From: an uncultured Thermoanaerobaculia bacterium
Lineage (GTDB): Bacteria > Acidobacteriota > Thermoanaerobaculia > Multivoradales > Multivoraceae
DNA length: 64,000 bases
Assembly: GCA_951812325.1 (NCBI GenBank)
Contig: OX638294.1
Span: forward strand, 1,138,527 to 1,202,526
Direction: 5' to 3'
Part shown: one piece after another, positions 21,078 through 52,536 of the stretch
Position numbering within the stretch: position 1 is the stretch's first letter
Layout: every line of letters starts with the position of its first letter
Program-made: the position numbers and the translations under genes
The notes under the pieces: generated by a model
The model's database searches: none
The model's input: the letters and a program-made list of their open reading frames with translations, nothing else
What the model was told of the DNA's origin: nothing

Positions 21078-21089
21078 CCTAAGCCGGAA

Positions 21090-21914: not shown

Positions 21915-21935
21915 TCGCGAACCGGCCGCGGACGG

Positions 21936-23393: not shown

Positions 23394-23419
23394 GCCCGCC
23401 TACCCGCCACCGCTTCGGC

Positions 23420-24676: not shown

Positions 24677-24767
24677 GGCCCTCAGTCCGCAGACGCCCCT
24701 CCCAAACCCCGGATCCCCAGCAACGGACCAAACTCGCAGGCTCTCTGGGGTTGACCCACTGAGTGGA

Positions 24768-25865: not shown

Positions 25866-26163
25866 GCACCTCCAGTTCGTCTTCAATCGTCGACACCGCC
25901 TGCACCCGGCGGTGATACAGCAGAATCCCGAGACCTCCGCCGAACCCATGTTCAGCAGCCACATTCTGCCGGCCTTCGGAACTTTCAACTCTCCAGTCCG
26001 GCATCCGCTCGCCGTAAACCGCTACGGTCCCCGAAGGGCGCAGCATGTAGAACAACCAAGCGACGCTGACTAACGCACTCCCTACGACAAGCCCGCCGAC
26101 CAAGGACTCGCGCCAAGGGAACTTGTGACGGGGTCTGGCGTGGGGCATACGGTACTCAGCCAC
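25846..26163 (-). CDS. Small single-pass membrane protein, hypothetical
   Basis: 105 aa with one TM helix (LVGGLVVGSALVSVAWLFYML). Its stop overlaps the downstream start, suggesting translational coupling. Confidence 0.35.
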   Translation of the reverse strand: MAEYRMPHARPRHKFPWRESLVGGLVVGSALVSVAWLFYMLRPSGTVAVYGERMPDWRVESSEGRQNVAAEHGFGGGLGILLYHRRVQAVSTIEDELEVPNAHRQ

Positions 26164-26336
26164 TTGACTACAACGGTCGAGGAAGCCACGAGAAGGTCTG
26201 AGAAGAGAGTCTAGGGTCGGAGGCCTTCACCTGTCAAGTGCCAGAGCTGTCCAGCGTTCGGCGTTGCCCGGCTGCTGTTCGCTTCGTGACGAGGCCTCGA
26301 TTCGCGGACTCTTGCCGCGGGCGGCCTAAGCCGGAA

Positions 26337-30060: not shown

Positions 30061-30066
30061 CGTTCT

Positions 30067-35197: not shown

Positions 35198-35534
35198 GGC
35201 GCGGATTCCGCCTCGTAGCCGTAACAGGCCCAGGCCCGCGAGCCGGCGGCGGCTTCGAGCGACGGCGGCGCCGCCAGGCAGCGATCGTGCGTGTACGGAC
35301 AGCGCGGCGCGAAGGCGCATCCCGCGGGCAGCGCGGCGAGGTCCGGCGGTTGACCCTCGGCGGCTGAACTCACGGCGCGGATTCCCCCTCGTAGCCGTAA
35401 CAGGCCCAGGCCCGCGAGCCGGCGGCGGCTTCGAGCGACGGCGGCGCCGCCAGGCAGCGATCGTGCGTGTAGGGACAGCGCGGCGCGAAGGCGCACCCCG
35501 CGGGCAGCGCGGCGAGGTCGGGCGGTTGACCCTC
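35183..35534. repeat. Tandem direct duplication, 2 x 176 bp (about 97% identical), spanning the oppD 3' end and the oppF start junction
   Basis: GGCGGCTGAACTCACGGCGCGGATTCC... occurs at about 35183 and again at about 35359. The copies differ at only about 5 positions. Copy 2 holds the true oppD C-terminus. Copy 1 holds a duplicate 57-aa C-terminal fragment plus the oppF GTG start. Confidence 0.85.
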
Positions 35535-36362
35535 GATCGAGTCGAGGCGGCCGCCGCATTCACCCTCCAGGCGCGGCACGGAGCGAAGCAGCCCCTGGGT
35601 GTAGGGGTGGCGCGGGTCGGCATAGAGGGCCGCCGCGGGCCCGCTCTCCACGATCCGGCCGCCGTACATGACCGCCACCCGGTCGGCATAGCGGGCGACC
35701 ACGCCGAGGTCGTGGGTGATCAGGATGAGCGCCGAATCCGCCTCCCGGGTGCGCTCCTTGAGCAGTTCCAGGATCTGCGCCTGCACCGTCACGTCGAGCG
35801 CCGTCGTCGGCTCGTCGGCGATCAGCAGGCGCGGATGGCAGGCGAGCGCCATCGCGATCATCACCCGCTGGCGCATGCCGCCCGAGAACTGGTGGGGATA
35901 GTCGCCAAGCCGCTTCGCGGCATCGGGAATGGCCACCGACTCAAGGTGTTCCACCGCCTGTTCGAGCGCCTCCCTCCGGCTGAGCCCGCGGTGCAGTCTC
36001 AGCGGCTCGGCGACCTGCCGGCCGATCGTCAGCACCGGATTGAGCGAGGACATCGGCTCCTGGAAGATCATCGCGATGCGGTTGCCCCGCACCGACCGGA
36101 TGCCGGCATCGTCGAGCGCGAGAAGGTCCTGACCCTCGAACAGGATCCTGCCGTTCTCGATTTGTCCCGGGTCGGGAATCAGCCGCAGGATGGAGAGCGC
36201 CGACACGCTCTTGCCCGAGCCGCTTTCGCCGACGATCGCCAGCGTCTCGCCCGGCGCGACCTCGAGCGACAGCGACGTCACCGCCCTGACCTTCGGCCGG
36301 TTGCCGAACCCGCCGCGGAAGGTGACGTCCAGATTCTCGATCCGGAGCAGAGGTTCCGTCAC
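35370..36362 (-). CDS. oppD: Oligopeptide/dipeptide ABC transporter ATP-binding protein OppD/DppD-like
   Basis: [38 protein letters not shown]..; C-terminal CAFAPRCPY motif. Confidence 0.85.
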
Positions 36363-36398
36363 GACGGGTCAGCCGCCCTCACCGGAAGCAGGCCGCCA

Positions 36399-36479
36399 GG
36401 CAGCCCGTGGCAGAAGTCGCGCTGCATTCGAGCGGCCAAGCATCCCGCCCGGCATCGTTGCTCCTCGGTCGAACATGGC
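36399..36479. repeat. About 80-bp conserved element (copy 1), in the oppA-oppD intergenic spacer
   Basis: GGCAGCCCGTGGCAGAAGTCGCGCTGCATTCGAGCGGCCAAGCATCCCGCCCGGCATCGTTGCTCCTCGGTCGAACATGGC is nearly identical to 40444-40524. Confidence 0.8.
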
Positions 36480-36496
36480 CGGGCGCCCCGCCGCCA

Positions 36497-38356
36497 TCAG
36501 AAGCCCATCTCCCGCTTCAACTCCTGATCGATCCAGAGCCGCGCGTAAATCGGACCGGGACGCACCGCCCCGGCCCGCAGCTCGCCGCCGTAGTTCTTCA
36601 CCCACGGCCACCAGGCGGTGTAGAGGTAGGGCACGGGCAGCCACAGGTACGGGGCCTCGTCGAGCATCTCCTTCGTGATCTGCTTGACGATCCGCTGCCG
36701 TTCGACTTCGTCCCGAGTCAGGAACATCTCGTGGATCCGGCGGTCGAGTTCCGGGTCCGACCACATCGACGGATTCCAGGTCTGTCCGGTGACGAAGTTC
36801 TTGCGCAGCGTGGTCGTCGGATTCACGTGGCCGCTGCCCATCAGGTAGCCGGGCCCGTGGGTGCGGGTGGTCATCATGGACAGGTAGGCCGCGTACTCCA
36901 TCACCTCGATCTCGATCGTCACCCCGATCCGGTCCAGGTAGCTGGCCAGCAGCGGCGCCAGCTCCATCCGCATCGAGTTGTTGGCCGACACCTGCATCCT
37001 GAAGGTGAAGCCGTCGGGGTAGCCCGCCTCGGCGAGCAGGCGGCGCGCCTTCTCGGGCTTGTACTCGAACAGTTCCTGCACGGAAGGCGGCATCGCCTCG
37101 AGCGGCTCGAAGTAGCCCTCGAACGAGGGGTGCTGCGGATAGGCGAACAGCTCGGCGTTGCCGCCGAAGAACAGGTCGACGATCTCCCGCTGGTTCACCG
37201 CCAGGTTCATCGCCCGCCGCACTCTGACGTCGTCGAACGGCGCCTGGTCGACCCGCATGACCATGAAGGTGCCGCCGGTCGAGAGCCACCGTGACCAGCG
37301 CAGTTCAGGCGTCGTCTTCTTCAGATGATCGACGGCGATCCAGCGGATGTACTCGAGGATGTCCAGCTTCCCCGTGCGAATGGCCGTCAGGTAGGTCGCC
37401 TCGTCCTTGATCGTGCGGTACGTGAGTTCGTCGATGAAGGGGATCTCGTAACTCTCCCCGCCGATCGTCGTCCGATCCCAGTAGTCCGGCCGGCGGAGGT
37501 AGGTCTGCGAGTTGCCGGCAATGAACCGCTCCAGCGTGAAGGGACCGGAACCCGTCAGGTTGCGCCAGTCCTTCGGGTCCACGTCGCCAAGTTCGCGCGG
37601 CACGATGCCGGAGAAATAGCCGTAGCCGAACCGGTAGTCCCACTCGGCGTTGAACTCGCCGAACTCGAAGACGACCGTGTGGTCGTCGCGAGCCGCCACG
37701 CGGTCGATGTGGTCGAAGTAGGTCGGGATCGCCTTCGGACTGTCCCGCTGACGCTCGAAGCTGAAGACGACGTCGTGGGCGTCGAACTCGCGCGACTTCA
37801 TCACGCCTGGCTTGTCCGGGAACATGACGCCCCGCCGAAGCCGGATCGCCAGCGTCAACGGATCTTCCCATTCCCAGCTCTCGGCCAGCTCGCCGCGAAT
37901 CGTCTCGGCGGAAAGGTACGCCTCGGAAACGAAGCGCTGGTCACCGCCCCGGACCGCCGCCTGTTTAAGGTCGCCCACGAAGAGCTGCTCGTAGAGCATC
38001 CCCGTGTCGTGGTTCTGCTTCCAGTTCCAGTCCGTCGTGTCCCACGACAGCGCCGACAGCGTGACGTAGACCGTGCCGACGTTCAGTTCGCCGCCGTAGC
38101 GGGGCGGCTCCACCGGCGCCCGGCCCGACTCGAACGCCAGGTCGGCTCCCATGTCCGTGCCGCCGGGCGGCAACGCGGAACGGGCGGGGAGCGCTTCGCC
38201 GCACCCGCCGAGCAGGAGAGCCAGGGCTGCCGCGCAGAGCAGGGGAAGGGCGGCCCCGACCTCCCCGGCCAGCCCGACAACGCCCGAGGAGCGGGCGCGC
38301 CGGCAGCGCCGGTGGTGGGTTCCGATAGCCGCCGCGGCGGCGGAAAATCCCTGCAT
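36497..38356 (-). CDS. oppA: ABC transporter substrate-binding protein, family 5 (peptide/nickel/opine type)
   Basis: 619 aa. Lipoprotein-type signal (LLLGGCGE). SBP_bac_5 architecture. Confidence 0.8.
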   Translation of the reverse strand: MQGFSAAAAAIGTHHRRCRRARSSGVVGLAGEVGAALPLLCAAALALLLGGCGEALPARSALPPGGTDMGADLAFESGRAPVEPPRYGGELNVGTVYVTLSALSWDTTDWNWKQNHDTGMLYEQLFVGDLKQAAVRGGDQRFVSEAYLSAETIRGELAESWEWEDPLTLAIRLRRGVMFPDKPGVMKSREFDAHDVVFSFERQRDSPKAIPTYFDHIDRVAARDDHTVVFEFGEFNAEWDYRFGYGYFSGIVPRELGDVDPKDWRNLTGSGPFTLERFIAGNSQTYLRRPDYWDRTTIGGESYEIPFIDELTYRTIKDEATYLTAIRTGKLDILEYIRWIAVDHLKKTTPELRWSRWLSTGGTFMVMRVDQAPFDDVRVRRAMNLAVNQREIVDLFFGGNAELFAYPQHPSFEGYFEPLEAMPPSVQELFEYKPEKARRLLAEAGYPDGFTFRMQVSANNSMRMELAPLLASYLDRIGVTIEIEVMEYAAYLSMMTTRTHGPGYLMGSGHVNPTTTLRKNFVTGQTWNPSMWSDPELDRRIHEMFLTRDEVERQRIVKQITKEMLDEAPYLWLPVPYLYTAWWPWVKNYGGELRAGAVRPGPIYARLWIDQELKREMGF

Positions 38357-38360
38357 GACG

Positions 38361-39257
38361 TCAGGTTCCTCTCATTCGGGGGTCCAGCAGGTCGCGCAAC
38401 GCATCCCCGAAGACGTTTGCCGAGTAGACCACGACGGTAAGGCAGACGCCCGGCGCCAGCGCCAGCCACGGCCCCAGGTAAAGGTAGGTGCGGCCGTCGC
38501 CGCTCAGCATGCCGCCCCAGGTCGGCGCCGGCGGCGGCACGCCGAGACCCAGAAACGAAAGCGCCGCCTCCGACAGGATGACGGCGCCGACCCGGGTCGT
38601 GAACAGGACGATGACGACCGGCATCACGTTGGGCAGGATGTGACGACGCAGGATGTGGAAGGTTCCCGCGCCAATCGACTGGGCGGCGTGGGTGTAGACG
38701 TGCTCGCGCACCGAGGTCACCGCGCCGCGCACGATCCGCGATCCGGCGATGCCGTAGAGCAGCCCCAGGATGATGACGATCTGGATGATTCCCGGACCGA
38801 CCACGGACACGACGACAATCAGGAGCACGAGGTCCGGAAAGGTCATCCAGGCGTCCACCAAGCGCTGCGTCAGCATGTCGAACCAGCCGCCGAGGTAGCC
38901 CGACAGCACGCCGATCACGATCGACACGACGGTGGCCAGGGCGGCGGCGCAGAAGCCGACGATCATCGATAGCCGCGCGCCCATCAGGACCCGCGAGAAG
39001 AGGTCGCGGCCGAGGTGGTCCGTGCCGAGCAGGAACTGCGTGGACGGCGGCTCGAGCCGATGCGCCAGATCGGTCTCGTTGATGCCGTATGGCGCGAGCA
39101 CGCCGGCAAAGATCCCGCTCAGCAGGAAGATGACGAAGACGACGGCGCCGGCGGCGCCCAGCGGCTTGGTCCGGAACAGGCGGACGACAAAACGCCGCCA
39201 CCGCGACTCGCCCCGCCCCGGCAAAGGGTCGGTTCCGGCTGCGGCAACGGTGGTCAT
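38361..39257 (-). CDS. oppC: Oligopeptide ABC transporter permease OppC/DppC-like
   Basis: 298 aa with a BPD_transp_1 pattern and an N-terminal OppC-type extension. Confidence 0.85.
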   Translation of the reverse strand: MTTVAAAGTDPLPGRGESRWRRFVVRLFRTKPLGAAGAVVFVIFLLSGIFAGVLAPYGINETDLAHRLEPPSTQFLLGTDHLGRDLFSRVLMGARLSMIVGFCAAALATVVSIVIGVLSGYLGGWFDMLTQRLVDAWMTFPDLVLLIVVVSVVGPGIIQIVIILGLLYGIAGSRIVRGAVTSVREHVYTHAAQSIGAGTFHILRRHILPNVMPVVIVLFTTRVGAVILSEAALSFLGLGVPPPAPTWGGMLSGDGRTYLYLGPWLALAPGVCLTVVVYSANVFGDALRDLLDPRMRGT

Positions 39258-39264
39258 GCCGCGC

Positions 39265-40215
39265 TCATCCGTAGCGCACCTTCGGATCGAGCCAGCCGTA
39301 GCTCAGGTCGACCAGCAGGTTGATCAGGAGCACCGCGACGCCCACGACCAGGAAGACGCCCGAGATCACCGGGTAGTCCCGCTCGTAGACGCCCTCGAGC
39401 AACAGCAGCCCCATGCCGGGGATGACGAAGATCTGCTCCATCACGACGGCGCCGCCGATCAGCAGCGGCGCCTGCAGCCCGATCAACGTGACCACCGGAA
39501 TCAGCCCGTTCTTCAGCGCATGCCGGACGACGACCGCCCGCTCCCTCAGACCCTTGGCCCGCGCGGTGCGCACGTAGTCCTGACGCATCACCTCGAGCAT
39601 CATCGTCCGCGTCATCCGCATCGTGATCGCCGACATCGACAGTCCGAGCAGGATCGCCGGCACGATCAGGTGGGTCAGGTTGGCGACCGGGTCGACGAGA
39701 AACGGCGTGTACTCGAGTTCCGGCGCCCACCGCCACCAGACGGACGGAAAGACCATGACCAGGGTGCCTAGCCAGAACCCGGGGATGGCCAGCATGACGA
39801 GCGAGAACGACCGCGCCGCGTAGTCGAGAGTGGAGTCCTGCCGGGTGGCCGAGAAGATGCCGACCGGCACGGCGACGGACAACGCGACGACGAGTGCCAG
39901 GAACCCGAGTTCGAACGTCACCGGCAGCCGTTCCAGGATCTGCTCCGTCACCGGCGTGCTGCGCCAGAGCGACTGGCCGAGATCGCCCTGCAGCGCGCTG
40001 CCCGCCCAGCGAACGTACTGCGAGGCCATCGGCTGATCGAGCCCCATCGCCGCCTCGAGGGCCTCCCGATCGAGGGAGGTCGAGACGTCGTTCTGCGCCA
40101 GCATCAGATCGATCACGTCGCCGGGGATGACCCGCATCGAGACGAAGACGATCAGGCTGGCGAAGAACAGCGTCGGCGCCATTGCCAGCAGACGTCGCAG
40201 GATGTATGTCTTCAT
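39265..40215 (-). CDS. oppB: Oligopeptide ABC transporter permease OppB/DppB-like
   Basis: 316 aa: MKTYILRRLLAMAPTLFFASLIVFVSMRVIPGD is the typical OppB N-terminus. Confidence 0.85.
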   Translation of the reverse strand: MKTYILRRLLAMAPTLFFASLIVFVSMRVIPGDVIDLMLAQNDVSTSLDREALEAAMGLDQPMASQYVRWAGSALQGDLGQSLWRSTPVTEQILERLPVTFELGFLALVVALSVAVPVGIFSATRQDSTLDYAARSFSLVMLAIPGFWLGTLVMVFPSVWWRWAPELEYTPFLVDPVANLTHLIVPAILLGLSMSAITMRMTRTMMLEVMRQDYVRTARAKGLRERAVVVRHALKNGLIPVVTLIGLQAPLLIGGAVVMEQIFVIPGMGLLLLEGVYERDYPVISGVFLVVGVAVLLINLLVDLSYGWLDPKVRYG

Positions 40216-40443
40216 GTAAGGCGTCAGAGAATACAGGTGCGCGGAACCTGTCGGGGACGCCGGCGTCCCCGAAGGGCGACAGATGCCCGGTCAACCTCCG
40301 CCAACAGCGTGCTCGCCCATGCCCCAACTCCGCTTCGTCTCCGGCGCGCAGCCTCGCTGGGGGCCTTCTCCCGCGGGCGATGCGCCTGTCAACTCAAGGA
40401 CTCGGCCCCGACTTCGGAATGGCTCTGATCCTCAATGGCCCTG

Positions 40444-40524
40444 GCAGCCCGTGGCAGAAGTCGCGCTGCATTCGAGCGGCCATGCATCCCGCCCGGCATC
40501 GTTGCTCCTCGGTCGAACATGGCA
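40444..40524. repeat. About 80-bp conserved element (copy 2), in the divergent region between oppB and the Uma2 gene
   Basis: Same sequence as 36399-36479 with 1-2 mismatches. It is immediately followed by TATAAT and the ATG of the Uma2 gene. Confidence 0.8.
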
Positions 40525-40539
40525 GCGGCAGAACGTATA

Positions 40540-41583
40540 ATGACTCCGATGGTTGACCCCGCCCATTCCCCGGTTTCGTCGTCGCCGCATGAAGCGCGCA
40601 CCGACCCGGAGGCGACGCCCCTGGACCCGGCCGACTTTCCCGGCTGCAGGGCGATTCACATTCCGCGTAGCGAGATCGAGGACTACGAGGGACGCCTGGA
40701 GTACTGGGAGGCGCGCACGGAGACCGCGATGGTCGTGTGCGAGCCCACGACGCGCTTTCACGAGCAGCCTTCCCATCAGTTGGCTGGACTGACACGGCTG
40801 ATCGCCGCGTCCCGCGGATCGCTGATCCCGGCCTACGGAACGACCGATCTGGGCAAGTTCGACGACCAGGGCAGGTTCAGGGTGTTGATGCAGGCGGACC
40901 AGATTCTCTATCTCCACCCCTCACCCCCCGAGGAGTTGACGCCGCGGGTCGACGTGGACCGCGACGACCTCCCCGACGTGATCCTCGAAGTCGACTACTC
41001 CACCGACGTCCGCGTCCGCAAGCTGCCGCTCTACGAAGCCTGGGGCTTCCCCGAGGTCTGGGTCGACGTGCCCGACGCGCGCTATCCCCGTCGCCCCAGG
41101 TCCCGCCTGTCCGGCCTGACGATTCACCTGCTCGAAGACGGCCGCTTTCGGGAAGCCCGGAGCAGCCGCGCCTTCCCCGGCTGGACCGCTGAGGAGATCC
41201 ACCGGGCGCTCAACGAACATTCCACGTCACCGTCGACGGCCGCCGCGCTGCACCGCGTCGGCGCCGCCCTGGGCGCAGCCGAAGGCACCGGACCGGACGA
41301 CGATTCCTGGTTGCGGCGCCACCGCGAGGAAGGACACAACGAAGGCCTGAACCGGGGCCTGGAGCAGGGCCGTGCGCAGGGCCTGGAGCAGGGCCGAGCC
41401 GAAGCCCGGGCCAACACGGTCGCCGCTCTGCTGGAGGAACGGGGCATCCTGACCTCCACTGCCTTTCCGGAGCGGCTGGGGGAACTCGGACCGATCCCGG
41501 AACCCGACCTGATCCGCGCCGCTCTGAGGTGCGCCAGCGAAACGGAGTTCCTGGAGCTCTGCGCACGACGCAGGCCGAACTGA
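40540..41583 (+). CDS. Uma2-family (DUF820, PD-(D/E)xK-like) putative endonuclease with a repetitive C-terminal extension
   Basis: The core PDVILEVDYSTDVRVRKLPLYEAWGFPEVWVDVPD matches the Uma2 signature (PDLVIEVLSPS...Y...G..EYWIVD). The C-terminus has GLNRGLEQGRAQGLEQGRAEARA repeats. The ATG at about 40540 is preferred, because the longer ORF start lies inside the 80-bp repeat. Confidence 0.65.
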   Translation: MTPMVDPAHSPVSSSPHEARTDPEATPLDPADFPGCRAIHIPRSEIEDYEGRLEYWEARTETAMVVCEPTTRFHEQPSHQLAGLTRLIAASRGSLIPAYGTTDLGKFDDQGRFRVLMQADQILYLHPSPPEELTPRVDVDRDDLPDVILEVDYSTDVRVRKLPLYEAWGFPEVWVDVPDARYPRRPRSRLSGLTIHLLEDGRFREARSSRAFPGWTAEEIHRALNEHSTSPSTAAALHRVGAALGAAEGTGPDDDSWLRRHREEGHNEGLNRGLEQGRAQGLEQGRAEARANTVAALLEERGILTSTAFPERLGELGPIPEPDLIRAALRCASETEFLELCARRRPN

Positions 41584-41979
41584 CGCTCGCGGGTCGCCGC
41601 CCGCCCGGTGCGCCCGCGGCGCCGGCGAGCCGGGCAACGAGACTCAGGGGCGACGTGCCATTCGAGAAGCGGGCCCGCGTCGGCTCGTGGATGCCGCCGA
41701 GCCATGGCCCGGCTCCTTGGGCGCGGTCGGAAAGCACGAAGTCCACCGCCACGTTGCCCGACAGGAAACGGCGAACCTCCTCAAGTGTCTGATGCCCGTG
41801 GGTCTGGAGAGTCAAGGTCATTTTCCGATGATCCCCGATCCCACCCGGCTCACGCTTGTGTGTTCCACTTCAGGCCGAGGGAGGTTGATGTCAGGACGCT
41901 CACTTCTCGCTGGACAGCTCTGCCGACGCTACGGGGGCTGTTGGCTTGTATCCTGCATTCACTCCTTTCACCCTTTGCG

Positions 41980-44328
41980 ATGATGGCCAGAAACACCGAC
42001 AACCGGCGCCGACGGCGACGCCCGCAATGCGTTCGATCGGCAGCGCTGATTGCCAGCGTGCTCGGCTGCACCCTCTTCCTGCCCGCCGGAAAACCGGCAG
42101 GCGCCCAGGAACCCGTCGACCGGGAACAGCCCTCGACCGCGGCCACGGTCGATCCGATCGACGCGATCCCCGGCATCTGGATTCGCGACGAACGGCTGAG
42201 CGAGGACCCGATCGAGAAGCTGGAGGAGGCCTACGGCCAGACCTTCGGCGGCGGGCCGGGCCGGTCGCCGGGCGCGAACCCGGGCAGCGGACGCACCGGC
42301 AGCTTCGGCCGCGGCGGCCAGGGCGGTTTCGGCGGCGGCCGCGGCCGCGGCGGATTCGGCCGTGGCTCGGGCAGACAGCCGGGCGGCACGCAGGACGGCC
42401 CGTCGGGGATGCGCGAGATGGCGCGGGACCTCGCGGAGCGCCTGGACGTGCTGCTGATCCGCATCGACGACCCCCAGGTCCTCATCCGCAACGCGAAGCG
42501 CGAGGACCGCATTCTCTTCCTCGACGGCCGCGAAATCGCCGACGGTTTCGGCGGTCGCAGCCGTGCCCGCCTGCTCGGCGACTCGCTCGAAGTGGAGACG
42601 TCCTCCCAGGGGCGGCAGCGGATCGAGACCTTCTACCTGGAGGCGGACCGGCTCGTCCTCGTGACCGACCTGCAGGGAGGACGCTTCGCCGATCTCTCCT
42701 TTCGTACCGTCTACGAGCGTTCAGGCGACGCGCCGCCCCCACCGACGCCGGCGCCCACGACCGCGGCCCGGGCAAACGACGCCGCTCCAGGACCCGACGC
42801 AGACGTTTTCGCCGCCGAAGGGAGCGAGGTCGGCGTCCCTGCCGACTTCAACAGGGCGGACCACCTGCCGCCGGTCCGAGGCGCCGCAGAGCGAGGGACG
42901 GAACGCGCCGACACCTCTCGCAGCGCCCGGCCGGCGACGATCCGCATTCTGCCGCCCGAGAAGGGCCACCGGGAACTCCTGAGCGGCCGCGTCCTCATCC
43001 AGACCCTCACGATCGACCCGCAGATCGCCGTCGTCGAGTTTCTGATCGACGGCGAGCCGGCGGCCCGGGTCACGACGCCGCCGTTCGAGGCGCGGGTCCG
43101 CCTCGCCGATCCGCCCCGCGAGCAGACCATCGAGGCCAGGGCAACGAGTGCCCGCGGCGCCCGCGCGGGAGCCGACCGGATCGTTGTGAACCGCCTCGAT
43201 CCCCCGTTCGCGGTGCGCATCACCGGCATCACTCCTGATGAGACCGGCGGCCGGGCAACCGTCCGCGTGGAGGCCGGCATCTCGGTGCCGCGCTCCGAAA
43301 CGCTGGAACGCGTCGAGTTCTACCGCACGGAACGGCTGGCCGCTTCGTTCGACGATTTCGAGGGCGAGGCCGGGCCCAGCGGCGTGCGCTCGCTGGCGGC
43401 CGACGTGCCGACCGCCGGCGTGTCGTCCGAGGACTTCGTCCGCGTCGTGGCGCGCCTCGGCGACGGCCGCGAGCTCGAAGACGTCGAACTGCTCCAGGGC
43501 GCCGAGTTCAGCAGCGAGATCGACGTCCAGCTCGTCCAGCTCCAGGTTCTGGTCGTCGACCGCGGCGGCAACCCCGTTGCCGGCCTCGGGCCCGAGGACT
43601 TCGAAGTCCGGGAGGACGGTGAGCCGCGCCAGGTGGAGAACCTCTACGTCTCGGACGACGTGCCCCTTTCGCTCGGTCTTGCGATCGACTCCTCCGGCAG
43701 CATGGAGCCCATCTGGCGGCAGACGAACGCGATCGCAGCGGCGTTCTTCGACGGCGCGCTGACCTGGCGCGACCAGGCGTTCCTGGTCGATTTCGACTCC
43801 ACCCTGCGCCTCGTGCAGCCACTCACCGGGAGCAAGCCGCTGCTGGCCCGCGGCCTGGAACGGCTCTTCCCGCAGGGCAAGACCGCCCTTCACGACGCAA
43901 TCCTGTTCTCGCTGCTCCAGTACGGCGACGCGCCGGGCCGGCGCGCCCTGGTCGTCGTCACGGACGGCTACGACTCGAACAGCCGCTCCGACCCCACCCG
44001 GGCGATCGACTTCGGCAAGCGCCTCGGCGTCCCCGTCTACGTCGTCGCCATGCGCTCCGTCGGATTCGGCCCAACGACGATGGAGGACGCGAACCTCCGC
44101 AACACCATGCGGCTGATCACGGGGCCGACCGGCGGCCGCCTGTTCCAGATCGAGTCGATCGACCAGATGGCGCGCGTGTTCGACCACATCGAGAAGGAAC
44201 TCCGGCGGCAGTACGTGCTGACCTACTACAGCGAGCGCCCGTTCGGCGCCGCCGTGGAACCCGACGTGCGCGTGCAACGGAAGGGGCTCAAGGTACGGAG
44301 CGCCCTGCCGCTTGGGGCGATCGAGTAG
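41980..44328 (+). CDS. Secreted multidomain protein with a C-terminal von Willebrand factor A domain (paralogue 1)
   Basis: Signal peptide after MMARNTDNRRRRRRP. Gly/Arg-rich low-complexity segment. Central beta-sandwich-like repeats. C-terminal VWA with a DxSxS MIDAS motif (LAIDSSGSM) and VVVTDG. Confidence 0.7.
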   Translation: MMARNTDNRRRRRRPQCVRSAALIASVLGCTLFLPAGKPAGAQEPVDREQPSTAATVDPIDAIPGIWIRDERLSEDPIEKLEEAYGQTFGGGPGRSPGANPGSGRTGSFGRGGQGGFGGGRGRGGFGRGSGRQPGGTQDGPSGMREMARDLAERLDVLLIRIDDPQVLIRNAKREDRILFLDGREIADGFGGRSRARLLGDSLEVETSSQGRQRIETFYLEADRLVLVTDLQGGRFADLSFRTVYERSGDAPPPPTPAPTTAARANDAAPGPDADVFAAEGSEVGVPADFNRADHLPPVRGAAERGTERADTSRSARPATIRILPPEKGHRELLSGRVLIQTLTIDPQIAVVEFLIDGEPAARVTTPPFEARVRLADPPREQTIEARATSARGARAGADRIVVNRLDPPFAVRITGITPDETGGRATVRVEAGISVPRSETLERVEFYRTERLAASFDDFEGEAGPSGVRSLAADVPTAGVSSEDFVRVVARLGDGRELEDVELLQGAEFSSEIDVQLVQLQVLVVDRGGNPVAGLGPEDFEVREDGEPRQVENLYVSDDVPLSLGLAIDSSGSMEPIWRQTNAIAAAFFDGALTWRDQAFLVDFDSTLRLVQPLTGSKPLLARGLERLFPQGKTALHDAILFSLLQYGDAPGRRALVVVTDGYDSNSRSDPTRAIDFGKRLGVPVYVVAMRSVGFGPTTMEDANLRNTMRLITGPTGGRLFQIESIDQMARVFDHIEKELRRQYVLTYYSERPFGAAVEPDVRVQRKGLKVRSALPLGAIE

Positions 44329-44348
44329 CCGGCGGGGAGCGAACGCCC

Positions 44349-46559
44349 GTGACGGCCACAGCACGACTTCGACACGTTCACGACCATCATGGATGGCGGC
44401 GGCGGTTCGCGTCGCTCCCGGTGAGGGCCACAACACCACCTCGACACGTTCTCGCCGGACGGATCCGATTTGCCGCGCTTGTCCTCGCCCTGTGCTTCCC
44501 GACCCTGGATCCGGTCGGCGCCCAGGATCCTTCGATACCGGACAGGCTTGACATGCAACTACTCGAACGGCTTCTGGATCTCGAAAACGCCCGCGACCCC
44601 TCCGGTGTCGGACAGGCTCGATCGCAGCTGCTCGACCGGCTTGCCGATCTGGCCGGTCCCTGGATCAGGAACGAGCAGGCGAGTGAGGATCCGCGCCTCG
44701 AGGTCGAGCGAATGGGGCTCGCACCGGAGGACGCTTCGCCGACGGTCCACGAACTGGCGGAGGCCCTCGCCGACCGCTACGGCACGGTCATGATCCGGCT
44801 TTTCGAAGACGCCGTGGCGCTTCTCGACAGTCGCGGAGGCACGCGGGTCCTGTCCCTCGACGGCCGCCGGCATCCCCTCGGCCGCGGCGTCGGCGGGCGC
44901 GTTCTCGAGACCGAGGACAGACTGGCGATCAAGATGGTCGGCGCGGGTTGGCAACGTCTCGATGCCTTCTTCAAGCAGCAGGGCCGGCTCGTACGGACAA
45001 CCGAGCTCGTGGTCCGTTCGCAACCCTCGGTGAAGTTCCGCACGATCTACGACCGTCCGCAGGGCGATGCCGCCTCGGATCCGCGCCATGCCCGGTCTCG
45101 CGGCTCGGCCCCGTCGACCGCCCTCCGGATCGTGCCGCCGGACCGGAGGTTAGGCGAACGGCTGCGCGGCAGAGTCGAAATCCAGACCCTGATCATCGAT
45201 CCGCTGGTCGCTGAGGTGGAGTTCTTCCTCGACGGCAAACGGATCAGGCGAGCCAGGAGGCCGCCGTTCACGACCCGCATCGTCCTCGCCGACCCGCCTC
45301 GGGAACAGAGGCTCGAAGCTCTGGCCCGGGACCGGGAAGGCTCGTACCGCGGCAGCGACGAGATCGTCCTGAACCAGATCGACAGGCTGTTTGCCGTCCG
45401 CCTTGCGCAAATCCGGAGCGTGCAGGCGAACGGGGTTCCCGCGATCCGGGTTGCCGCCTCCGTTTCCCTGCCGGGCTCGGCGACGCTCCAGCGGGTCGAG
45501 TTCTACCGCAGCGAGCATCTCGTGGCGACACGGCACAGCTTCGACGGAGAAGGAACGCCCGGCACGGCCCGGACCGTTGCCGTCGAGGCGTTGATCGAGG
45601 AAGGACGGCCGGACGACTTCATCCGCGTCGTGGCCAGGCTCGCCGACGGCCGCGAGCGGGAAGACGCGAAACTCCTGCAGGGAAGCGAGATCGACATCCG
45701 GCTGGTTCAGTTTCAGGTGCTGGTGACCGACCACGACGGGAATCCCGCCGGCCGGCTCTCGCCGGAGCACTTCGCCATCCGGGAGCAGGGGATGGAGCCC
45801 CGGGCCGTCGACGTCCACACCGCCAGGGACGTTGGTCTCGTTCTGGGTCTGGCGATCGATTCGTCCGACAGCATGCTGCCTACGTGGGGCCGCCTGAAAC
45901 AGATCGCCCGCGGCTTCCTCCGCTCCACACTGACACCGGGCGACCGGGCCTTCCTCGTCGACTTCGACGACACCGTGAGCCTCGCGCAACCACTGACCGG
46001 AGACCGGCAGCTGCTGTCCGCGCGGCTCGACCGCCTGATTCCGTTCGGCGGCACGGCTCTGAACGACGGCCTGCTGTTCGCCCTGCTCCAGTACCGCCGG
46101 GAGCCCGGCCGCCGCGCTCTCATCGTCGTCACGGACGGCTTCGATGAGCACAGCCGCTCCCGGCCCCATCAGTCCACCGACCTGGCAAGGCGCCTGGGGC
46201 TACCGATCTACTTCATCGAACTCGATGCCGCGGCCGAATCCGCAGCGACGTCGATCGACGGTTTCGTTGCCGCCAACCCCACGTCAGGACGGCAACGGCG
46301 CCAGGCGCGGAAACGGCTCATCGAGATCAGCGAACAGACCGGCGGTCGCCTCTTCCACATCGCAGTCGACGCCGGCACGACCGGATGGACCGACCGCATC
46401 AGAGAGGTCTTCGATCTGATCGAAGCGGATCTGCGGCGCCAACACGTGCTGACGTACTACAGAACCGAGCCGCTCGGCACGCCGATCGAGCCGGAGATCC
46501 GGATGACCCGTCAAGATCTCAAGCTGCGGAGCGTCGTGCCTCTCGAAGCGATCCAGTAG
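44349..46559 (+). CDS. Secreted multidomain protein with a C-terminal von Willebrand factor A domain (paralogue 2)
   Basis: Same architecture. LAIDSSDSM and IVVTDG. The central region aligns with paralogue 1 (RVEIQTLIIDPLVAEVEFFLDGK.. versus RVLIQTLTIDPQIAVVEFLIDGE..). Confidence 0.7.
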   Translation: MTATARLRHVHDHHGWRRRFASLPVRATTPPRHVLAGRIRFAALVLALCFPTLDPVGAQDPSIPDRLDMQLLERLLDLENARDPSGVGQARSQLLDRLADLAGPWIRNEQASEDPRLEVERMGLAPEDASPTVHELAEALADRYGTVMIRLFEDAVALLDSRGGTRVLSLDGRRHPLGRGVGGRVLETEDRLAIKMVGAGWQRLDAFFKQQGRLVRTTELVVRSQPSVKFRTIYDRPQGDAASDPRHARSRGSAPSTALRIVPPDRRLGERLRGRVEIQTLIIDPLVAEVEFFLDGKRIRRARRPPFTTRIVLADPPREQRLEALARDREGSYRGSDEIVLNQIDRLFAVRLAQIRSVQANGVPAIRVAASVSLPGSATLQRVEFYRSEHLVATRHSFDGEGTPGTARTVAVEALIEEGRPDDFIRVVARLADGREREDAKLLQGSEIDIRLVQFQVLVTDHDGNPAGRLSPEHFAIREQGMEPRAVDVHTARDVGLVLGLAIDSSDSMLPTWGRLKQIARGFLRSTLTPGDRAFLVDFDDTVSLAQPLTGDRQLLSARLDRLIPFGGTALNDGLLFALLQYRREPGRRALIVVTDGFDEHSRSRPHQSTDLARRLGLPIYFIELDAAAESAATSIDGFVAANPTSGRQRRQARKRLIEISEQTGGRLFHIAVDAGTTGWTDRIREVFDLIEADLRRQHVLTYYRTEPLGTPIEPEIRMTRQDLKLRSVVPLEAIQ

Positions 46560-46764
46560 CAGATGCTCGCGTTCTTCACCTTCTGGTTGCTCATGTCGAT
46601 CGCGTTCCTGGTCCTGATCATGGTCGACCAGGTGCGCGACCTCCGGCCGCCAAAGGACCGGAAGACACGGTGGTCCTGGCCGAGCCGAATCAGGAAACCG
46701 CAGAAGATGCGGCGTGGCGGAAGCGCCATCGACAGACAAGCGTCAGCAACAGGAAACAGATCGA

Positions 46765-48897
46765 ATGGCCCGGAGTGATGGGAAGAACACCGCGATGCGC
46801 TTGAGCCGGTCCGTAGCCGTCGAACGTCACGAGGAGCCGGGACTTGGAGTCGTCGGCGCGATCTGGATCGACAATCCGCCGGTCAACGCTCTGAGCCAGC
46901 ACGTGCGCGAGGGCCTCGCGGCGGCGGTGCCGGCAGTAGCCGACGATCCCGAGATGCAGGCCGCCGTGATCGTCTGCCGCGGCCGGACCTTCATCGCCGG
47001 CGCCGACATCCGCGAGTTCGGCAAGCCGCGGTTGCCCCCGGACACGAACGAAGTCCGTCGGATGATCGAGAAGTCACCCAAGCCGTTCGTCGCCGCAATC
47101 CACGGAACCGCGCTGGGCGGCGGACTGGAGATGGCGATGGCCTGCCACTTCCGGGTCGCCGACGCCAACGCACGGCTCGGCCTGCCCGAGGTCAAGCTCG
47201 GCATCCTGCCGGGCGGCGGCGGCACCCAGCGCCTGCCCCGCCTGGTCGGCGTACCGCGAGCGCTCGAGATGGTCACGAGCGGAGAACACATCACCGCAGC
47301 CGAAGCGCTGGACCTGGGCCTGATCGACGGCGTCGTCGATCGCCTCGCAAACACGAGTCCGGCTGTCGGCGCGTTCCGTTTCGCGCTCCGCGCCGTGGCC
47401 GAGGGCCGCGGCCTTCCCCGGGTCCGCGACATCGAGAGCCACCGCGCCGCCGTGCGGGAGAACCCGGGGATCTTCAGCGACTTCCGCCGCCGGATCGCCC
47501 GCAGGATCCGCGGGTTCAACGCTCCCGAGGTTTGCATCCAGTGCATCGAGGCGGCGGCCGAACTGCCGTTCGACGAGGGCCTCCTGCGGGAAGCGGAGCT
47601 GTCGCGGCAACTCCACGCGGACCCGCAGTCGCGGGCCCAGCGCTACTACTTCTTCGCCGAGCGAGCGGCGCGCAAGATCCCCGACGTTCCTGCGGACACG
47701 CCGGTTCGGGAGGTTGCCAGGGTCGGCGTCCTCGGCGCCGGCACGATGGGCGGCGGCATCTCGATGGCCTTCGCCAACGCCGGCCTGCAGGTTCAGATCG
47801 TCGAGCAGAGCCGCGAGGCGCTCGACCGGGGTCTCGCCACCGTGCGGCGCAACTACGACCGCAGCGCCTCCCGCGGACGCTTCACCCAGGAACAGGTCGA
47901 GGAGCGGATGGGCCTTCTTGCGGGCGGCACGGACCGGGACGCGCTCGCCGAATGCGACCTGGTGATCGAGGCCGTGTTCGAGGACATGGAGCTGAAGAAG
48001 AAGGTGTTCGCGGGACTCGACCGGATCGTCAGACCGGGCGCGTTGCTGGCAACGAACACGTCGTACCTCGACGTGAACGAGATCGCCGGCGAGACAAAAC
48101 GGCCCGAGGACGTCGTGGGCATGCACTTCTTCAGCCCCGCCAACGTGATGAAGCTGGTCGAAGTCGTTCGCGGCGAGAAGTCCGCGCCGGACGCGATCGC
48201 GACCGCCATGTCGATCTCCCGAACGATCGGCAAGGTTCCGGTTCCGGTCGGCGTCTGCCACGGCTTCGTCGGCAACAGGATGCTCTTCCAGCGCCGACTG
48301 CAGGCGGACCGCCTCGTGCTCGAGGGAGCGCTGCCCTGGGACATCGACCGCGTGCTCTACGACTTCGGCATGCCGATGGGGCCGTTCCGGATGAGCGATC
48401 TGGCAGGACTCGACGTGGGCTGGAACGCGGCGACATCGTCGTCCAGCACGTTGCGCGAGATGCTCTGCGAGCGCGACCGGCGGGGCCGGAAGACGGGCCG
48501 CGGCTACTACGTCCACGACTCGGCGACACGAGCCGCGGCGCCCGACCCGGAGGTGCTGGACCTCGCCCGGGAACTGGCCGAGCGGCTCGGCATCGAACAG
48601 CGCGAGATCGACGACGAGGAGATCCTGAACCGCTGCCTGCTCTCCTCCGTCAACGAAGGAGCGAAGATCCTCGAAGAGGGCATCGCGCTGCGCGCCAGCG
48701 ACATCGACGTCATCTGGATCAACGGCTACGGCTGGCCCGTCTACCGAGGCGGCCCCATGTTCTGGGCCGACGAGTTCGGCCTCGACAAGATCACGGGCAT
48801 CCTCGACGACTACGCCGCCCGCTTCGACCCCGACCAGTGGCGGGCTGCGCCGTTGCTCCGGGAAACCGCCGCTGACGGCGGCCGGCTCAGCGGCTAG
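46765..48897 (+). CDS. fadJ: Fatty-acid oxidation complex alpha subunit: enoyl-CoA hydratase plus 3-hydroxyacyl-CoA dehydrogenase (FadJ/FadB-like)
   Basis: N-terminal crotonase fold (GGGLEMAMACHFRVA) and a central NAD-binding motif GVLGAGTMGGGISMAFANAG. The start is uncertain among GTG 46714, ATG 46765 and ATG 46795. Confidence 0.85.
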   Translation: MARSDGKNTAMRLSRSVAVERHEEPGLGVVGAIWIDNPPVNALSQHVREGLAAAVPAVADDPEMQAAVIVCRGRTFIAGADIREFGKPRLPPDTNEVRRMIEKSPKPFVAAIHGTALGGGLEMAMACHFRVADANARLGLPEVKLGILPGGGGTQRLPRLVGVPRALEMVTSGEHITAAEALDLGLIDGVVDRLANTSPAVGAFRFALRAVAEGRGLPRVRDIESHRAAVRENPGIFSDFRRRIARRIRGFNAPEVCIQCIEAAAELPFDEGLLREAELSRQLHADPQSRAQRYYFFAERAARKIPDVPADTPVREVARVGVLGAGTMGGGISMAFANAGLQVQIVEQSREALDRGLATVRRNYDRSASRGRFTQEQVEERMGLLAGGTDRDALAECDLVIEAVFEDMELKKKVFAGLDRIVRPGALLATNTSYLDVNEIAGETKRPEDVVGMHFFSPANVMKLVEVVRGEKSAPDAIATAMSISRTIGKVPVPVGVCHGFVGNRMLFQRRLQADRLVLEGALPWDIDRVLYDFGMPMGPFRMSDLAGLDVGWNAATSSSSTLREMLCERDRRGRKTGRGYYVHDSATRAAAPDPEVLDLARELAERLGIEQREIDDEEILNRCLLSSVNEGAKILEEGIALRASDIDVIWINGYGWPVYRGGPMFWADEFGLDKITGILDDYAARFDPDQWRAAPLLRETAADGGRLSG

Positions 48898-49304: not shown

Positions 49305-52067
49305 CTATTCCTCGGCCTGCCGGCGCAGGTGGGGCACGATGCCGATGAGCCGTGCGACGTGGTGCTCGAACAGCGTGCCGTCGTCCGCCTCGTCCGCGTC
49401 CACGCCGACCGGGACCGCCGCCGCGGGGCCGTCCAGCAGGTCTCTGCAGACCAGCGGCGCGACGGCCGCGTTCCGCGGGCCGTCGACCCAGTACCAGCCG
49501 CCCGGCCTGGCGCCCTGGACGGACACCTCGCTGGCGATCGGATTGCCGGCGGCGTCGGTGCAGGAGTTGCTGTCCTCGCGCAGCAGCTGGACGACCAGGC
49601 CGTCATCGTTCGCCTGCAGCGTCTGCGTCGTGGTCTCGCCGCTGCAGGTGGTCCGCCACTCGACGGACTCGCCGTCGGTCGGCTTGACGACGATGCCGCC
49701 GGCGCCCCGCCAGTACGGTTTGACGTACTCGCTGCAGACCCCGTCATCGGGCTTCGGCAGGTGCGGCACGATGCCGATCAGCCGTGCGACCTCGTGTTCG
49801 AAGAACGTGCCGTTGTCCGTCACCTCCGTCTCCACGCCGGCGGGAATCGTCGCCACGGCGCCGCCCAGGTCGACTTCGGAGACCAGCGGCGCGACGGCGG
49901 CGTTCCGCGGGCCGTCGATCCAGTACCAGCCGCCGGGCTCGATGTCCGTGACCGACACCTCGCTGCGGACGGCATTCCCGTCATCGTCCGTGCACGCGCC
50001 CCGGCGCACCAGCTGGACGATCAGGCCGTCGTCGTTGGCATACAGCGTCTCCGTCGTGCGGGCGCCGCGGCAGGACATCCGGAACTTCACGGAAAGGCCG
50101 TTGGCCGGCTTGACGACGATGCCGCCGGTGCCCCGGAAGTACGGCGCCACGAACCGGTTGGGATCAAGCGGCTCCGGTTCCGGTTCGGGATCGGGGTCCG
50201 AGTCGGGATCGGAGTCGGGATCGGAGTCGGGATCGGGGTCGGGTTCCGGGGGAGGGGGACAATCGGGCGCCGGAGCCACGTCGTTGATCGTGGCCTCGGC
50301 GATCCACTTGTAGCTCCAGAGTACGTCGACCGGGCTCTTTACTTCGCTGCCGTCGGGGGTGACGTCGACCGAGTATGACTCCGTGGCCTCGACGCTGAAC
50401 GTCTCCGACCCTTCGTTGGCGCAGTCGGTGCGGGCGGCCAGCTCAATCGTCCCCGTTGTCGAGGTGAGGGAACTGCCAATCGACCCAAGCCTCACGGTGG
50501 CCGAGGTCGTGGCGGCGTAGTCTTCACTCGTGGCCGTGCCTTCCTCGGTGGCGTAGACCACCTCCAGAGGAGGCGCCCCGCTGATCTGGGGGAAAACCGA
50601 GTAGCTCACGTCGAAGCTCAGATCCGTCCCTTCGTCCCCCTGCGCGTCGTCGACGCCAAGACACGAGTAGACGCTCAGGTCGCCGTTGTTCCGCCGCGTC
50701 GTCGTGGCGGACGGCAGGTTCCCCGTGAGACTCGTCTCGCACAGGGACAGATGCTGCAGGTTGGTCAGGGTGCCGAGGCTGGAGGGAATGGCGCCGGTAA
50801 AGCCGTTCGACCCGAGGAGGAGGTGCGTGATGCCCGTGGCGGCGGTCGCGTTGTTGATGTTCCCGGTCATCTTGTTGCCGCGGAGGTTGAGCACCCTCAT
50901 GCCGGTGCTGGTGATGCTGGGGATGCCCCCGGTCAAGCTGTTGAAATGGGCCGAGATCTCTTGCAGGTTGTTGCCGGTTGGCAGGGCCGGGATGGCCCCT
51001 GTCAACTTGTTGTCGTTGACGACGAGCTGCTTCAGTTTCACTAGGGTGGACAGGGCGGGGATTTCCCCGGTCAGGTTGTTGCCGACGCCTCTCCCGTCGA
51101 ATCGGAAGTTGTTGCCCACATTGAGACGCTCCAGTCTCACGAGGGCGGACAGATCGGGGATTCCCCCGGTCAGGTTGTTGTCGTTGAGATCGACCTCCCT
51201 CAGGAAGATGATGCCGTTCAACGGCGGGATGCTCCCGGTGAACTTGTTCCTGCCGAGAGCGAGCCACGTCAGGCTGCTGACGTTGGTAATCGCTCCGATC
51301 TCCCCGGTCAGCGCGTTTCTGCTGAGATCGAGTGTCGCCAGGTCGTGGAGGCCGCTGGGATTGGGGAACTCCCCGGTCAGCTCGTTGTCGTTGAGAAGCA
51401 CATGGATCAGGGCGGTGAGGCCGCTCAACGACGGGATGGACCCGGTCAGCTCGTTGTTGTCGAGAAAGATACGCTCCAGGCTGGTCAGGGCGCTCAGATT
51501 CGGGATTTCCCCGGTCAGGGCGTTCCCACTGAGCCTGAGGTACGTCAGATTGGTCAGGTTGCTGAACGATGCGGGGATTCCCCCGGTGAACTTGTTTCTC
51601 CGGAGGTCGAGGTGCGTCAGGTTGGTCAGCGCGCCCACCCACGCCGGGATCGGCCCGGGGGTGAGGTTGTTGTAGGTGAGCCGGAGATACGTGAGTGCGT
51701 CGAGGGCGCTCAGATCGGGGAGCGTCCCCGTAATGTTGTAGCCAGGGCCGAGCGTGAGCCGGGTGACGCGGCTCCTTTCGCCGTTCATGCCGATCGATTG
51801 CCACCGATGCATGCCCCTGTTGCGCGCCCAGTTCAGGCTCGTGTTGTCGCCCGAGCCGAGAGTCAGCGCGGCCTTGAAGGCCAGCAGGGCGGTGCAGTCG
51901 GCAGCCAGCATGTCCCGCTTGGCGTTGCTCAGAGTCCTGCTCCCCACGGCCCCAATGACGGCTACGTCGCCCCTCACGCAGGTTGGCGACGTCTGGGCGT
52001 GGGACGCGCCGCCGAACAGGCCGAGCGCCAGCGCCAGGACGAGGACCTTGAGCACCAGACCCGGCAC
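49305..52067 (-). CDS. Secreted leucine-rich-repeat protein (plant-specific-type LRRs) with two tandem C-terminal repeat domains and an Asp/Pro-rich linker
   Basis: 920 aa. Signal peptide. About 17 repeats of 24 residues, LxxLxxLxLxxNxLTGxIPxxL (for example LTNLTYLRLSGNALTGEIPNLSAL). Linker PEPDPDPDSDPDSDPDSDPDPEPEPEP. Two roughly 140-aa C-terminal repeats (YFRGTGGIVVKP... and YWRGAGGIVVKP...). Confidence 0.8.
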   Translation of the reverse strand: MPGLVLKVLVLALALGLFGGASHAQTSPTCVRGDVAVIGAVGSRTLSNAKRDMLAADCTALLAFKAALTLGSGDNTSLNWARNRGMHRWQSIGMNGERSRVTRLTLGPGYNITGTLPDLSALDALTYLRLTYNNLTPGPIPAWVGALTNLTHLDLRRNKFTGGIPASFSNLTNLTYLRLSGNALTGEIPNLSALTSLERIFLDNNELTGSIPSLSGLTALIHVLLNDNELTGEFPNPSGLHDLATLDLSRNALTGEIGAITNVSSLTWLALGRNKFTGSIPPLNGIIFLREVDLNDNNLTGGIPDLSALVRLERLNVGNNFRFDGRGVGNNLTGEIPALSTLVKLKQLVVNDNKLTGAIPALPTGNNLQEISAHFNSLTGGIPSITSTGMRVLNLRGNKMTGNINNATAATGITHLLLGSNGFTGAIPSSLGTLTNLQHLSLCETSLTGNLPSATTTRRNNGDLSVYSCLGVDDAQGDEGTDLSFDVSYSVFPQISGAPPLEVVYATEEGTATSEDYAATTSATVRLGSIGSSLTSTTGTIELAARTDCANEGSETFSVEATESYSVDVTPDGSEVKSPVDVLWSYKWIAEATINDVAPAPDCPPPPEPDPDPDSDPDSDPDSDPDPEPEPEPLDPNRFVAPYFRGTGGIVVKPANGLSVKFRMSCRGARTTETLYANDDGLIVQLVRRGACTDDDGNAVRSEVSVTDIEPGGWYWIDGPRNAAVAPLVSEVDLGGAVATIPAGVETEVTDNGTFFEHEVARLIGIVPHLPKPDDGVCSEYVKPYWRGAGGIVVKPTDGESVEWRTTCSGETTTQTLQANDDGLVVQLLREDSNSCTDAAGNPIASEVSVQGARPGGWYWVDGPRNAAVAPLVCRDLLDGPAAAVPVGVDADEADDGTLFEHHVARLIGIVPHLRRQAEE
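49335..50170. repeat. Intragenic tandem duplication, 2 x about 420 bp (about 75% identical), encoding the two C-terminal repeat domains of the LRR protein
   Basis: GCAGGTGGGGCACGATGCCGATGAGCCGTGCGAC... at about 49335 and GGCAGGTGCGGCACGATGCCGATCAGCCGTGCGAC... at about 49755. Confidence 0.7.
50170..50265. repeat. 12-bp microsatellite-like repeat (GGGATCGGAGTC)n encoding the (DPDS)n linker
   Basis: GGGATCGGGGTCCGAGTCGGGATCGGAGTCGGGATCGGAGTCGGGATCGGGGTCGGGTTCCGG. Confidence 0.7.
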
Positions 52068-52172: not shown

Positions 52173-52536
52173 CGGGGGAGGACGACGAGGCCGGGATTCG
52201 ATCTGGAGCTTGATCCATCACGCTCTCCTTGAAGGCAGGTACTCGAAGGCAGGTAGTCGTGGCGCCAGGATGGCCGGTGATCCGCAGGGTCACCTTCTCG
52301 CCGCCGCGGTTGGGGAGCTGGCTGGCTGGCTGCGAGCAGAGGAACGAGCGACGCCGCTCTTCAGGCAGGGGGAGTTTAGCTTGTCTTCGTCCAAACGCAG
52401 AAGTGCTTGATTTTGCTGGGCTAACGCCAGGCGGCGGCGCGCGACGCTCGCTCCGAGGCCGCCGGGACCCCACTCCCCTCAGGTGGCCCTGCGCGGGCGA
52501 CGAACCCGGTCCGGACCTCGCTGCTACTGTTCGTCG

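Follow-up and report, generated by a model that had tools for sequence, protein, structure and literature searches.

TIGR03436 (acidobact_VWFA, NCBIfam) is a family of VWA proteins from the phylum Acidobacteriota that is known for paralogous expansion. To our knowledge, proteins of this type are among the most expanded families in the phylum and none has a known function, and a literature search on TIGR03436, Ca. Multivorans and acidobacterial VWA proteins of sponge symbionts returned no reports. Other VWA proteins of interest for comparison are BatA and BatB, the Ig-stalk adhesins (Mfa5, RrgA, PitA, GBS104, SpaC and the LapA vWFA domain) and metazoan VWA domains, which bind extracellular-matrix proteins such as collagens. 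The gene pair described here shares with TIGR03436 its phylum and a C-terminal unit comprising a small beta-sandwich and a VWA domain with a MIDAS, but differs by a ~450-aa N-terminal part (a barrel head, a linker and two Ig-like domains) and by its placement in an ordered syntenic array, both of which lie outside the family definition. A VWA domain with a MIDAS is likewise shared with BatA/BatB, of which BatB is a close structural neighbour, whereas the proteins studied here have no membrane anchors and no MoxR/DUF58/TPR partners and score far under the cut-off of the BatA HMM. In contrast to the Ig-stalk adhesins, the VWA domain is C-terminal and not at a pilus tip, and neither an LPXTG/sortase motif, type V pilin or T1SS features nor a pilus operon was found. 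The head is predicted to fold like the iLBPs (FABP/CRBP/LBP-8/SAHS, calycins) but is bacterial, shows no detectable sequence similarity to them, is exported whereas they are cytosolic, in many cases has its helices separated by a Gly/Arg-rich insert, and is here fused to Ig-like and VWA domains. New here are the variable ordered array and the previously unannotated head domain, that is, a new architecture on a known uncharacterised family and not a new kind of system.

Within the window (the whole analysed stretch of 64 kb, G+C ~68%), both open reading frames were found where the preliminary description had placed them, on the plus strand with a spacing of 20 nt and encoding 782 and 736 aa. 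The paralogy it had proposed was borne out, as BLASTP aligned the two proteins over 667 columns with 42% identity (E 5e-143); at the DNA level only short patches of 70–85% likeness are left. Judged by this similarity, the pair goes back to an old tandem duplication of a single type of exported multi-domain protein, and has the following features:

41980..44328, plus strand: gene 1 (VWA1), ORF of 782 aa starting with ATG; orthogroup B; TIGR03436 149.3 bits
41980..42105, plus strand: gene 1 signal peptide, residues 1-42, with RRRRRR, a hydrophobic core and PAGA/Q (from the sequence and its conservation in homologues; cleavage site inferred)
42157..42726, plus strand: gene 1 N-terminal head, residues 60-249, predicted FABP-like beta-barrel (N-domain profile E 1.6e-50; fold taken from the domain model of the paralogue)
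42235..42387, plus strand: gene 1 Gly/Arg-rich insert, residues 86-136 (51 residues, 63% G+R), separating the barrel's two helices
42721..42924, plus strand: gene 1 Pro/Ala-rich linker, residues 248-315, specific to orthogroup B (alignment gap versus the other groups)
42931..43500, plus strand: gene 1 two Ig-like beta-sandwiches, residues 318-408 and 409-507 (mapped from the gene 2 model; weak Big_7 match)
43513..44241, plus strand: gene 1 TIGR03436 unit, small beta-sandwich (512-561) and VWA domain (562-754)
43687-43701, plus strand: gene 1 predicted MIDAS, D570-S572-S574, with T635 and D662
44349..46559, plus strand: gene 2 (VWA2), ORF of 736 aa from GTG 44349 (alternative start GTG 44421); orthogroup A; TIGR03436 118.4 bits
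44346..44454, plus strand: gene 2 start-region tandem duplication of 72 bp with two candidate GTG starts (repeat 44346-44382 / 44418-44454, 84% over 37 nt)
44349..44522, plus strand: gene 2 signal peptide region, residues 1-58, ending in FAALVLALCFPTLDPVGA/Q (aligned with homologue signal peptides; model pLDDT <50)
44640..45062, plus strand: gene 2 N-terminal head, residues 98-238, predicted FABP-like 10-stranded barrel
45114..45683, plus strand: gene 2 two Ig-like beta-sandwiches, residues 256-346 and 347-445 (AF2 model; weak Big_7 match)
45684..46472, plus strand: gene 2 TIGR03436 unit, beta-sandwich (446-495) and VWA domain (496-708)
45858-45872, plus strand: gene 2 predicted MIDAS, D504-S506-S508, with T569 and D596

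Both N-termini comprise an Arg-rich stretch, a hydrophobic core and a GA/Q site, a pattern kept in 30+ homologues, in keeping with the signal peptides previously suggested for the two proteins. This N-terminal signal is the sole hydrophobic segment in either protein, with no further transmembrane anchors, and the C-termini (ALPLGAIE and VVPLEAIQ, respectively) lack LPXTG or any other sorting signal. A short direct repeat had been described near each start; this holds for gene 2, where it corresponds to the 72-bp duplication, and no comparable duplication was found at the start of gene 1. GTG 44349 of gene 2 is preceded by GGGGAG 9 nt upstream, GTG 44421 is in line with the starts of the homologues, and judged from the sequence the start is ambiguous between the two. 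The public annotation instead starts gene 2 at M69 (44553), giving a protein of 668 aa, which is probably wrong because the conserved signal peptide is thereby cut off. A scan for promoters and terminators over 40200-47000 gave nothing over shuffled expectation.

The gene 2 product was modelled with AlphaFold2 using a 38-sequence alignment (pLDDT 79.5, pTM 0.73). The model consists of a disordered signal region (residues 1-68), a helical stretch that is mostly gene 2-specific (69-101), the head, the two Ig-like domains, a small sandwich (446-495 plus 716-732) and the VWA domain (496-708), so the central beta-sandwiches proposed earlier were recovered in the model as two Ig-like domains and a third, small sandwich. 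The domain order is a Sec signal peptide, a head barrel of ~140 aa, a linker, two Ig-like spacers and the TIGR03436 unit. In a Pfam comparison VWA_2 was the only family above threshold for both proteins, and the profile search that had been suggested for the central repeats gave Big_7 matches below threshold.

The preliminary description had assigned the pair to no known system. This needs correction, as the TIGR03436 model matches residues 514-773 of gene 1 with 149.3 bits and residues 448-708 of gene 2 with 118.4 bits, against a curated cut-off of 81.25. On these scores both proteins are members of a named, functionally uncharacterised acidobacterial VWA family, with a match that spans the last ~260 aa, about a third of each protein. 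The modelled domain has the Rossmann-like fold of VWA domains, and the intact DxSxS MIDAS reported earlier was found complete in both proteins, the D-x-S-x-S motif being accompanied by the distal Thr and Asp that would make up the predicted metal site. These five residues (D-S-S-T-D) were invariant wherever aligned (158–160 of 161 copies) and in all orthogroups. A fold search with the whole protein gave as neighbours BatB, Mfa5, PitA, RrgA, LapA, ANTXR and collagen VI, with TFIIH Ssl1 and Rpn10 scoring equally well; the matches are thus generic to VWA domains and do not narrow down the function.

The N-terminal region had been described as low-complexity or helical. The Gly/Arg-rich region of gene 1 and the helix of gene 2 agree with this, but the region is also predicted to contain a folded 10-stranded beta-barrel. 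A separate AF2 model of the head, based on a 22-sequence alignment (pLDDT 89.8), showed strand A followed by two helices and nine strands, i.e. the 10-stranded barrel with a helix-turn-helix between strands A and B by which iLBPs/FABPs are recognised. In structure comparisons the head model gave the highest figure with C. elegans LBP-8 (14.3), followed by SAHS1 and Oplophorus luciferase (both 13.4), UnaG (13.2), CRBP and FABPs (12–12.5), nitrobindins (9–10) and classical lipocalins (7–8). The head is accordingly predicted, from the model, to fold like a fatty-acid-binding protein (FABP). No link to FABPs was found at the sequence level: Pfam gave no family for the 22 head members at E<=1, a profile search of the PDB gave no sequence match, and hhalign of the head against human FABP4 returned a probability of 0.2%. 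The C-terminal '(F)RTVYER' of the head resembles the 'TRVYER' of FABPs, though in a different register and with an Arg that varies between copies. Strand A carries a G-x-W motif that is invariant in the 38-sequence alignment and nearly so over the 161 copies.

When compared to 1.84 billion cluster representatives, the head profile matched 466 proteins at E<=1e-3, and the make-up of the family was assessed on the 145 new representatives among the best 150 of these 466. In this set, 127 of the 145 were stand-alone proteins no longer than 300 aa, with a median of 215 aa; of these 127, 109 had an N-terminal hydrophobic run and 84 a Gly/Arg-rich window or insert. The motif G.W..[ND]...S[EDQ] was present in 114 of the 145 representatives. 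All 13 long representatives carried D-x-S-x-S and are therefore VWA fusions. Ten of the stand-alone proteins had no Pfam or NCBIfam family and were named 'hypothetical protein' in the databases, and the few stand-alone proteins with an organism name came from Thermoanaerobaculia. The head thus constitutes a new domain family, absent from Pfam and NCBIfam, with at least 466 clusters at 50% identity and mostly found in small exported proteins. One stand-alone head gene (locus L059) adjoins genes for an ECF sigma factor and an LTXXQ (Spy/CpxP-like) protein.

The pair itself is not a fixed unit. In about 35 loci from related Thermoanaerobaculia (Ca. Multivorans), a conserved slot was found in which SBP5-OppC-OppB on the minus strand is followed by a VWA array on the plus strand and by FadB-PQQ, each slot holding 1–8 tandem paralogues in conserved order, which agrees with the multi-copy paralogous occurrence typical of TIGR03436 in Acidobacteriota. 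Clustering of 161 copies at a distance cut-off of 0.45 (~55% identity) gave orthogroups in the order C [TauE] (D) B (E G F/I) A A-short (H/J). Group B, to which gene 1 belongs, was present in all related loci in which the OppB flank is retained, with orthologues 70–83% identical (the copy in L029 being internally deleted), and was the sole copy, with no A, in L038, L039, L040 and L048. Groups A, E, G, F and others varied in copy number. B and A, with 35 and 47 members, were the two most widely retained groups, the latter including short forms without a head, and gene 2 was 65–71% identical to the copy following B in the closest genomes. Nine loci contained frameshifted or truncated copies, and such decay in several arrays points to gene birth and death. 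The gene 1/gene 2 pair (B A) is among the smallest forms of this variable array. The window array is without the C copy and the TauE gene, of which no remnants were found in the window; their place is taken by an unrelated 382-aa ORF that was found in no other locus. Homologues were labelled as MAGs of Ca. Multivorans, Multivoraceae, Multivoradales, Thermoanaerobaculia, Holophagales, Holophagae and Acidobacteriota, and single B-like genes occurred in more distant Acidobacteriota. Judging by the isolate names, we take many of the relatives to be MAGs from sponge and coral metagenomes.

Going by aligned identities, the paralogues differ most in the head: between orthogroups the head averaged 0.33 identity, the first and second Ig-like domains 0.54 and 0.48, respectively, and the VWA core 0.61. 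Inside group B, identity was 0.88 in the head and 0.93 in the VWA core, and inside the broad group A the head reached only 0.49. The divergence of the head could reflect a looser constraint and not new specificities.

Overall we favour, with guarded confidence, a role as independent, modular exported tethering proteins. Each protein would act alone as a two-ended tether, without needing the other as an obligate partner. At the unchanging end, the VWA/MIDAS would use a divalent cation to bind an acidic side chain on a shared partner, which could be a cell-envelope or host-matrix component, and the head, most divergent between paralogues and tightly held within each orthogroup, would be the specificity end. 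The predicted fold suggests a small hydrophobic or amphipathic molecule as a possible ligand of the head, and the Gly/Arg-rich insert of gene 1 may in addition bind a polyanion. We infer this tether mechanism from established VWA/MIDAS biochemistry combined with the conservation pattern. The proteins would be exported, which fits the periplasm and the cell surface alike; no outer-membrane, sortase, T1SS or T9SS signal was recognisable in them, which leaves a surface or host-facing location hypothetical. As an entry point to TIGR03436 the locus is tractable, with a syntenic array, one always-present member and paralogues differing mainly in one domain, and the predicted lipid-binding-type fold provides a concrete biochemical hypothesis.

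Host-directed adhesion is an unlikely explanation, although several observations speak for it. Here the proteins would be adhesins of a sponge or coral symbiont, with the MIDAS binding host matrix proteins such as collagens and the array having grown to match host ligands. The presumed sponge and coral origin of the relatives would fit, a 920-aa LRR protein is encoded 2.7 kb downstream of the pair, and the structural neighbours include the adhesin VWA domains of Mfa5, PitA, RrgA and LapA as well as ANTXR and collagen VI. Moreover, reef-invertebrate Acidobacteriota, including Thermoanaerobaculia, have been reported as most enriched in eukaryotic-like proteins (PMC13083261). However, the structural matches are generic to VWA domains, with Ssl1 and Rpn10 scoring as high, neither an outer-membrane transport signal nor an anchor is present, and B, the most conserved member, also occurs in Thermoanaerobaculia and Holophagae MAGs that are more distantly related. 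If array size were to track a host-associated lifestyle, the proteins would form a new class in the 'eukaryotic-like' repertoire of sponge and coral symbionts.

A bolder version of the tether model, to which we assign a low probability, takes the head as a true bacterial branch of the FABP/calycin fold, close matches of which are otherwise animal, fused to Ig-like spacers and a MIDAS module in reef-invertebrate symbionts, where multiplication would have given an ordered array of as many as eight 'capture-and-tether' proteins with diversified ligands. If true, these proteins might use a fixed docking site to sequester different lipids, sterols or pigments from the host or the envelope.

It is improbable that the proteins are instead periplasmic envelope proteins with a role in maintenance or stress and not in adhesion, in which the barrel would be a carrier or sensor for an envelope lipid or another hydrophobic compound of the envelope, with the VWA domain docking on an envelope protein. 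The presence of a Sec signal only and the prevalence of stand-alone exported proteins of ~200 aa in the head family are consistent with this, as is the ECF sigma factor and LTXXQ context of the L059 gene, but that context is a single example and the need for up to eight diverged copies is left unexplained.

The heteromeric complex suggested in the preliminary description, taken here as an obligate one in which the gene 1 and gene 2 products would build a single extracellular machine through contacts of their VWA or Ig-like domains, is highly doubtful. The genes lie next to each other on one strand with 20 nt between them, were probably retained as a pair when other copies were lost, and represent the two most widely retained orthogroups. 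However, the variable copy number, with some copies decayed, is a poor fit to a fixed complex and, together with B standing alone in four loci, argues against an obligate heterodimer. Finally, Bat/MoxR-type proteins, of an aerotolerance operon or of AAA+ chaperone-assisted metal or cofactor insertion, are extremely improbable and effectively refuted by the BatA model NF047508 (28 bits versus a cut-off of 380) and by missing partner genes, since no MoxR ATPase (none had been seen nearby before either), DUF58 or TPR Bat gene was found among the likely genes of the 64 kb or in the inspected related loci (no MoxR/DUF58 called in L001-L003), nor do the proteins have transmembrane anchors beyond the signal peptide.

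The surroundings of the pair were inspected by Pfam scans of the likely genes in the 64 kb, which gave no further VWA gene, and no pilin or sortase genes were found near the pair. No RNA genes were detected in the window at Rfam gathering scores, and no tRNAs. Anti-phage defence was rejected for lack of a PADLOC match, and a plasmid or mobile origin for lack of a megablast match in the plasmid collection. An Opp-type ABC transporter is encoded at 34157-40215 on the minus strand, and other genes of the window encode a FadB-like enzyme, PQQ dehydrogenases, ABC-2 transporters, a transposase, M16 peptidases, GroEL and RNase E/G. The proximity of the Opp transporter and FadB genes to the array may represent conserved gene order only.

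The start region of gene 2, the second and last VWA gene of the array in the window, contains a 72-bp tandem duplication (window 44346-44454), the product of which is two in-frame GTG starts with similar N-termini (VTATARLRHV and VRATTPPRHV). The public annotation of gene 2 instead describes a protein of 668 aa starting at M69 (window 44553); this start is located downstream of the signal peptide that homologues conserve and was probably mis-called.

Related arrays, found like that of the window between oppB and fadB, vary in composition. The following genes were considered in this comparison:

L001/L002 (related loci) 6874-7626, and the corresponding sites of other loci: gene for a membrane protein of the TauE family (sulfite exporter-like)
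Window 40435-41583, + strand: 382-aa ORF upstream of the array

In many arrays, the TauE-family gene is found between the first VWA paralogue (orthogroup C) and the group B copy, and the window array lacks it. The 382-aa ORF occupies the site where relatives encode the C-group paralogue and the TauE gene; it had no family match in Pfam or NCBIfam and no counterpart in any of 53 related loci, and the 'EQGRAQGLEQGRAE' repeat at its C-terminal end gave only weak FliH-like or invertase-like matches. The ORF may have arrived by insertion or be mobile. Nine loci (L009, L013, L014, L025, L029, L030, L036, L043 and L054) have arrays in which VWA copies are frameshifted, split or internally deleted; one of them is L029, where the B copy, universal elsewhere, lacks its middle. 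These altered copies could represent true pseudogenes or long-read assembly errors.

The N-terminal head domain of the VWA proteins also occurs alone:

L059 (Ca. Multivoradales chromosome) 4402-6292: region with P0146, stand-alone head-domain homologue, 212 aa

P0146 contains a Gly/Arg-rich insert and adjoins genes encoding an ECF sigma factor and LTXXQ/Metal_resist (Spy/CpxP-like) proteins; this setting may indicate that the head-domain family has a periplasmic context linked to envelope stress.

Other genes noted in the window are:

5970-7904, - strand: first PQQ-dependent dehydrogenase gene
19271-20989, + strand: DDE transposase
21090-23393, 23420-24676 and 26337-31329, - strand: repeated ABC-2 permease and ATPase modules
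49305-52067, - strand: 920-aa leucine-rich-repeat protein (LRR_4, LRR_8)
52411-54534, + strand: second PQQ-dependent dehydrogenase gene

The transposase precedes the repeated ABC-2 modules (19271-31329), and the G+C content drops to 0.62 between 24 and 26 kb. The second PQQ-dependent dehydrogenase gene is part of the conserved FadB-PQQ flank of the VWA array. The LRR protein shows weak similarity to XopAC, XopL and internalin in their LRRs. Eukaryotic-like repeat proteins of this type have been reported in invertebrate symbionts, and LRR homologues are also encoded close to VWA copies in L033 and L040.
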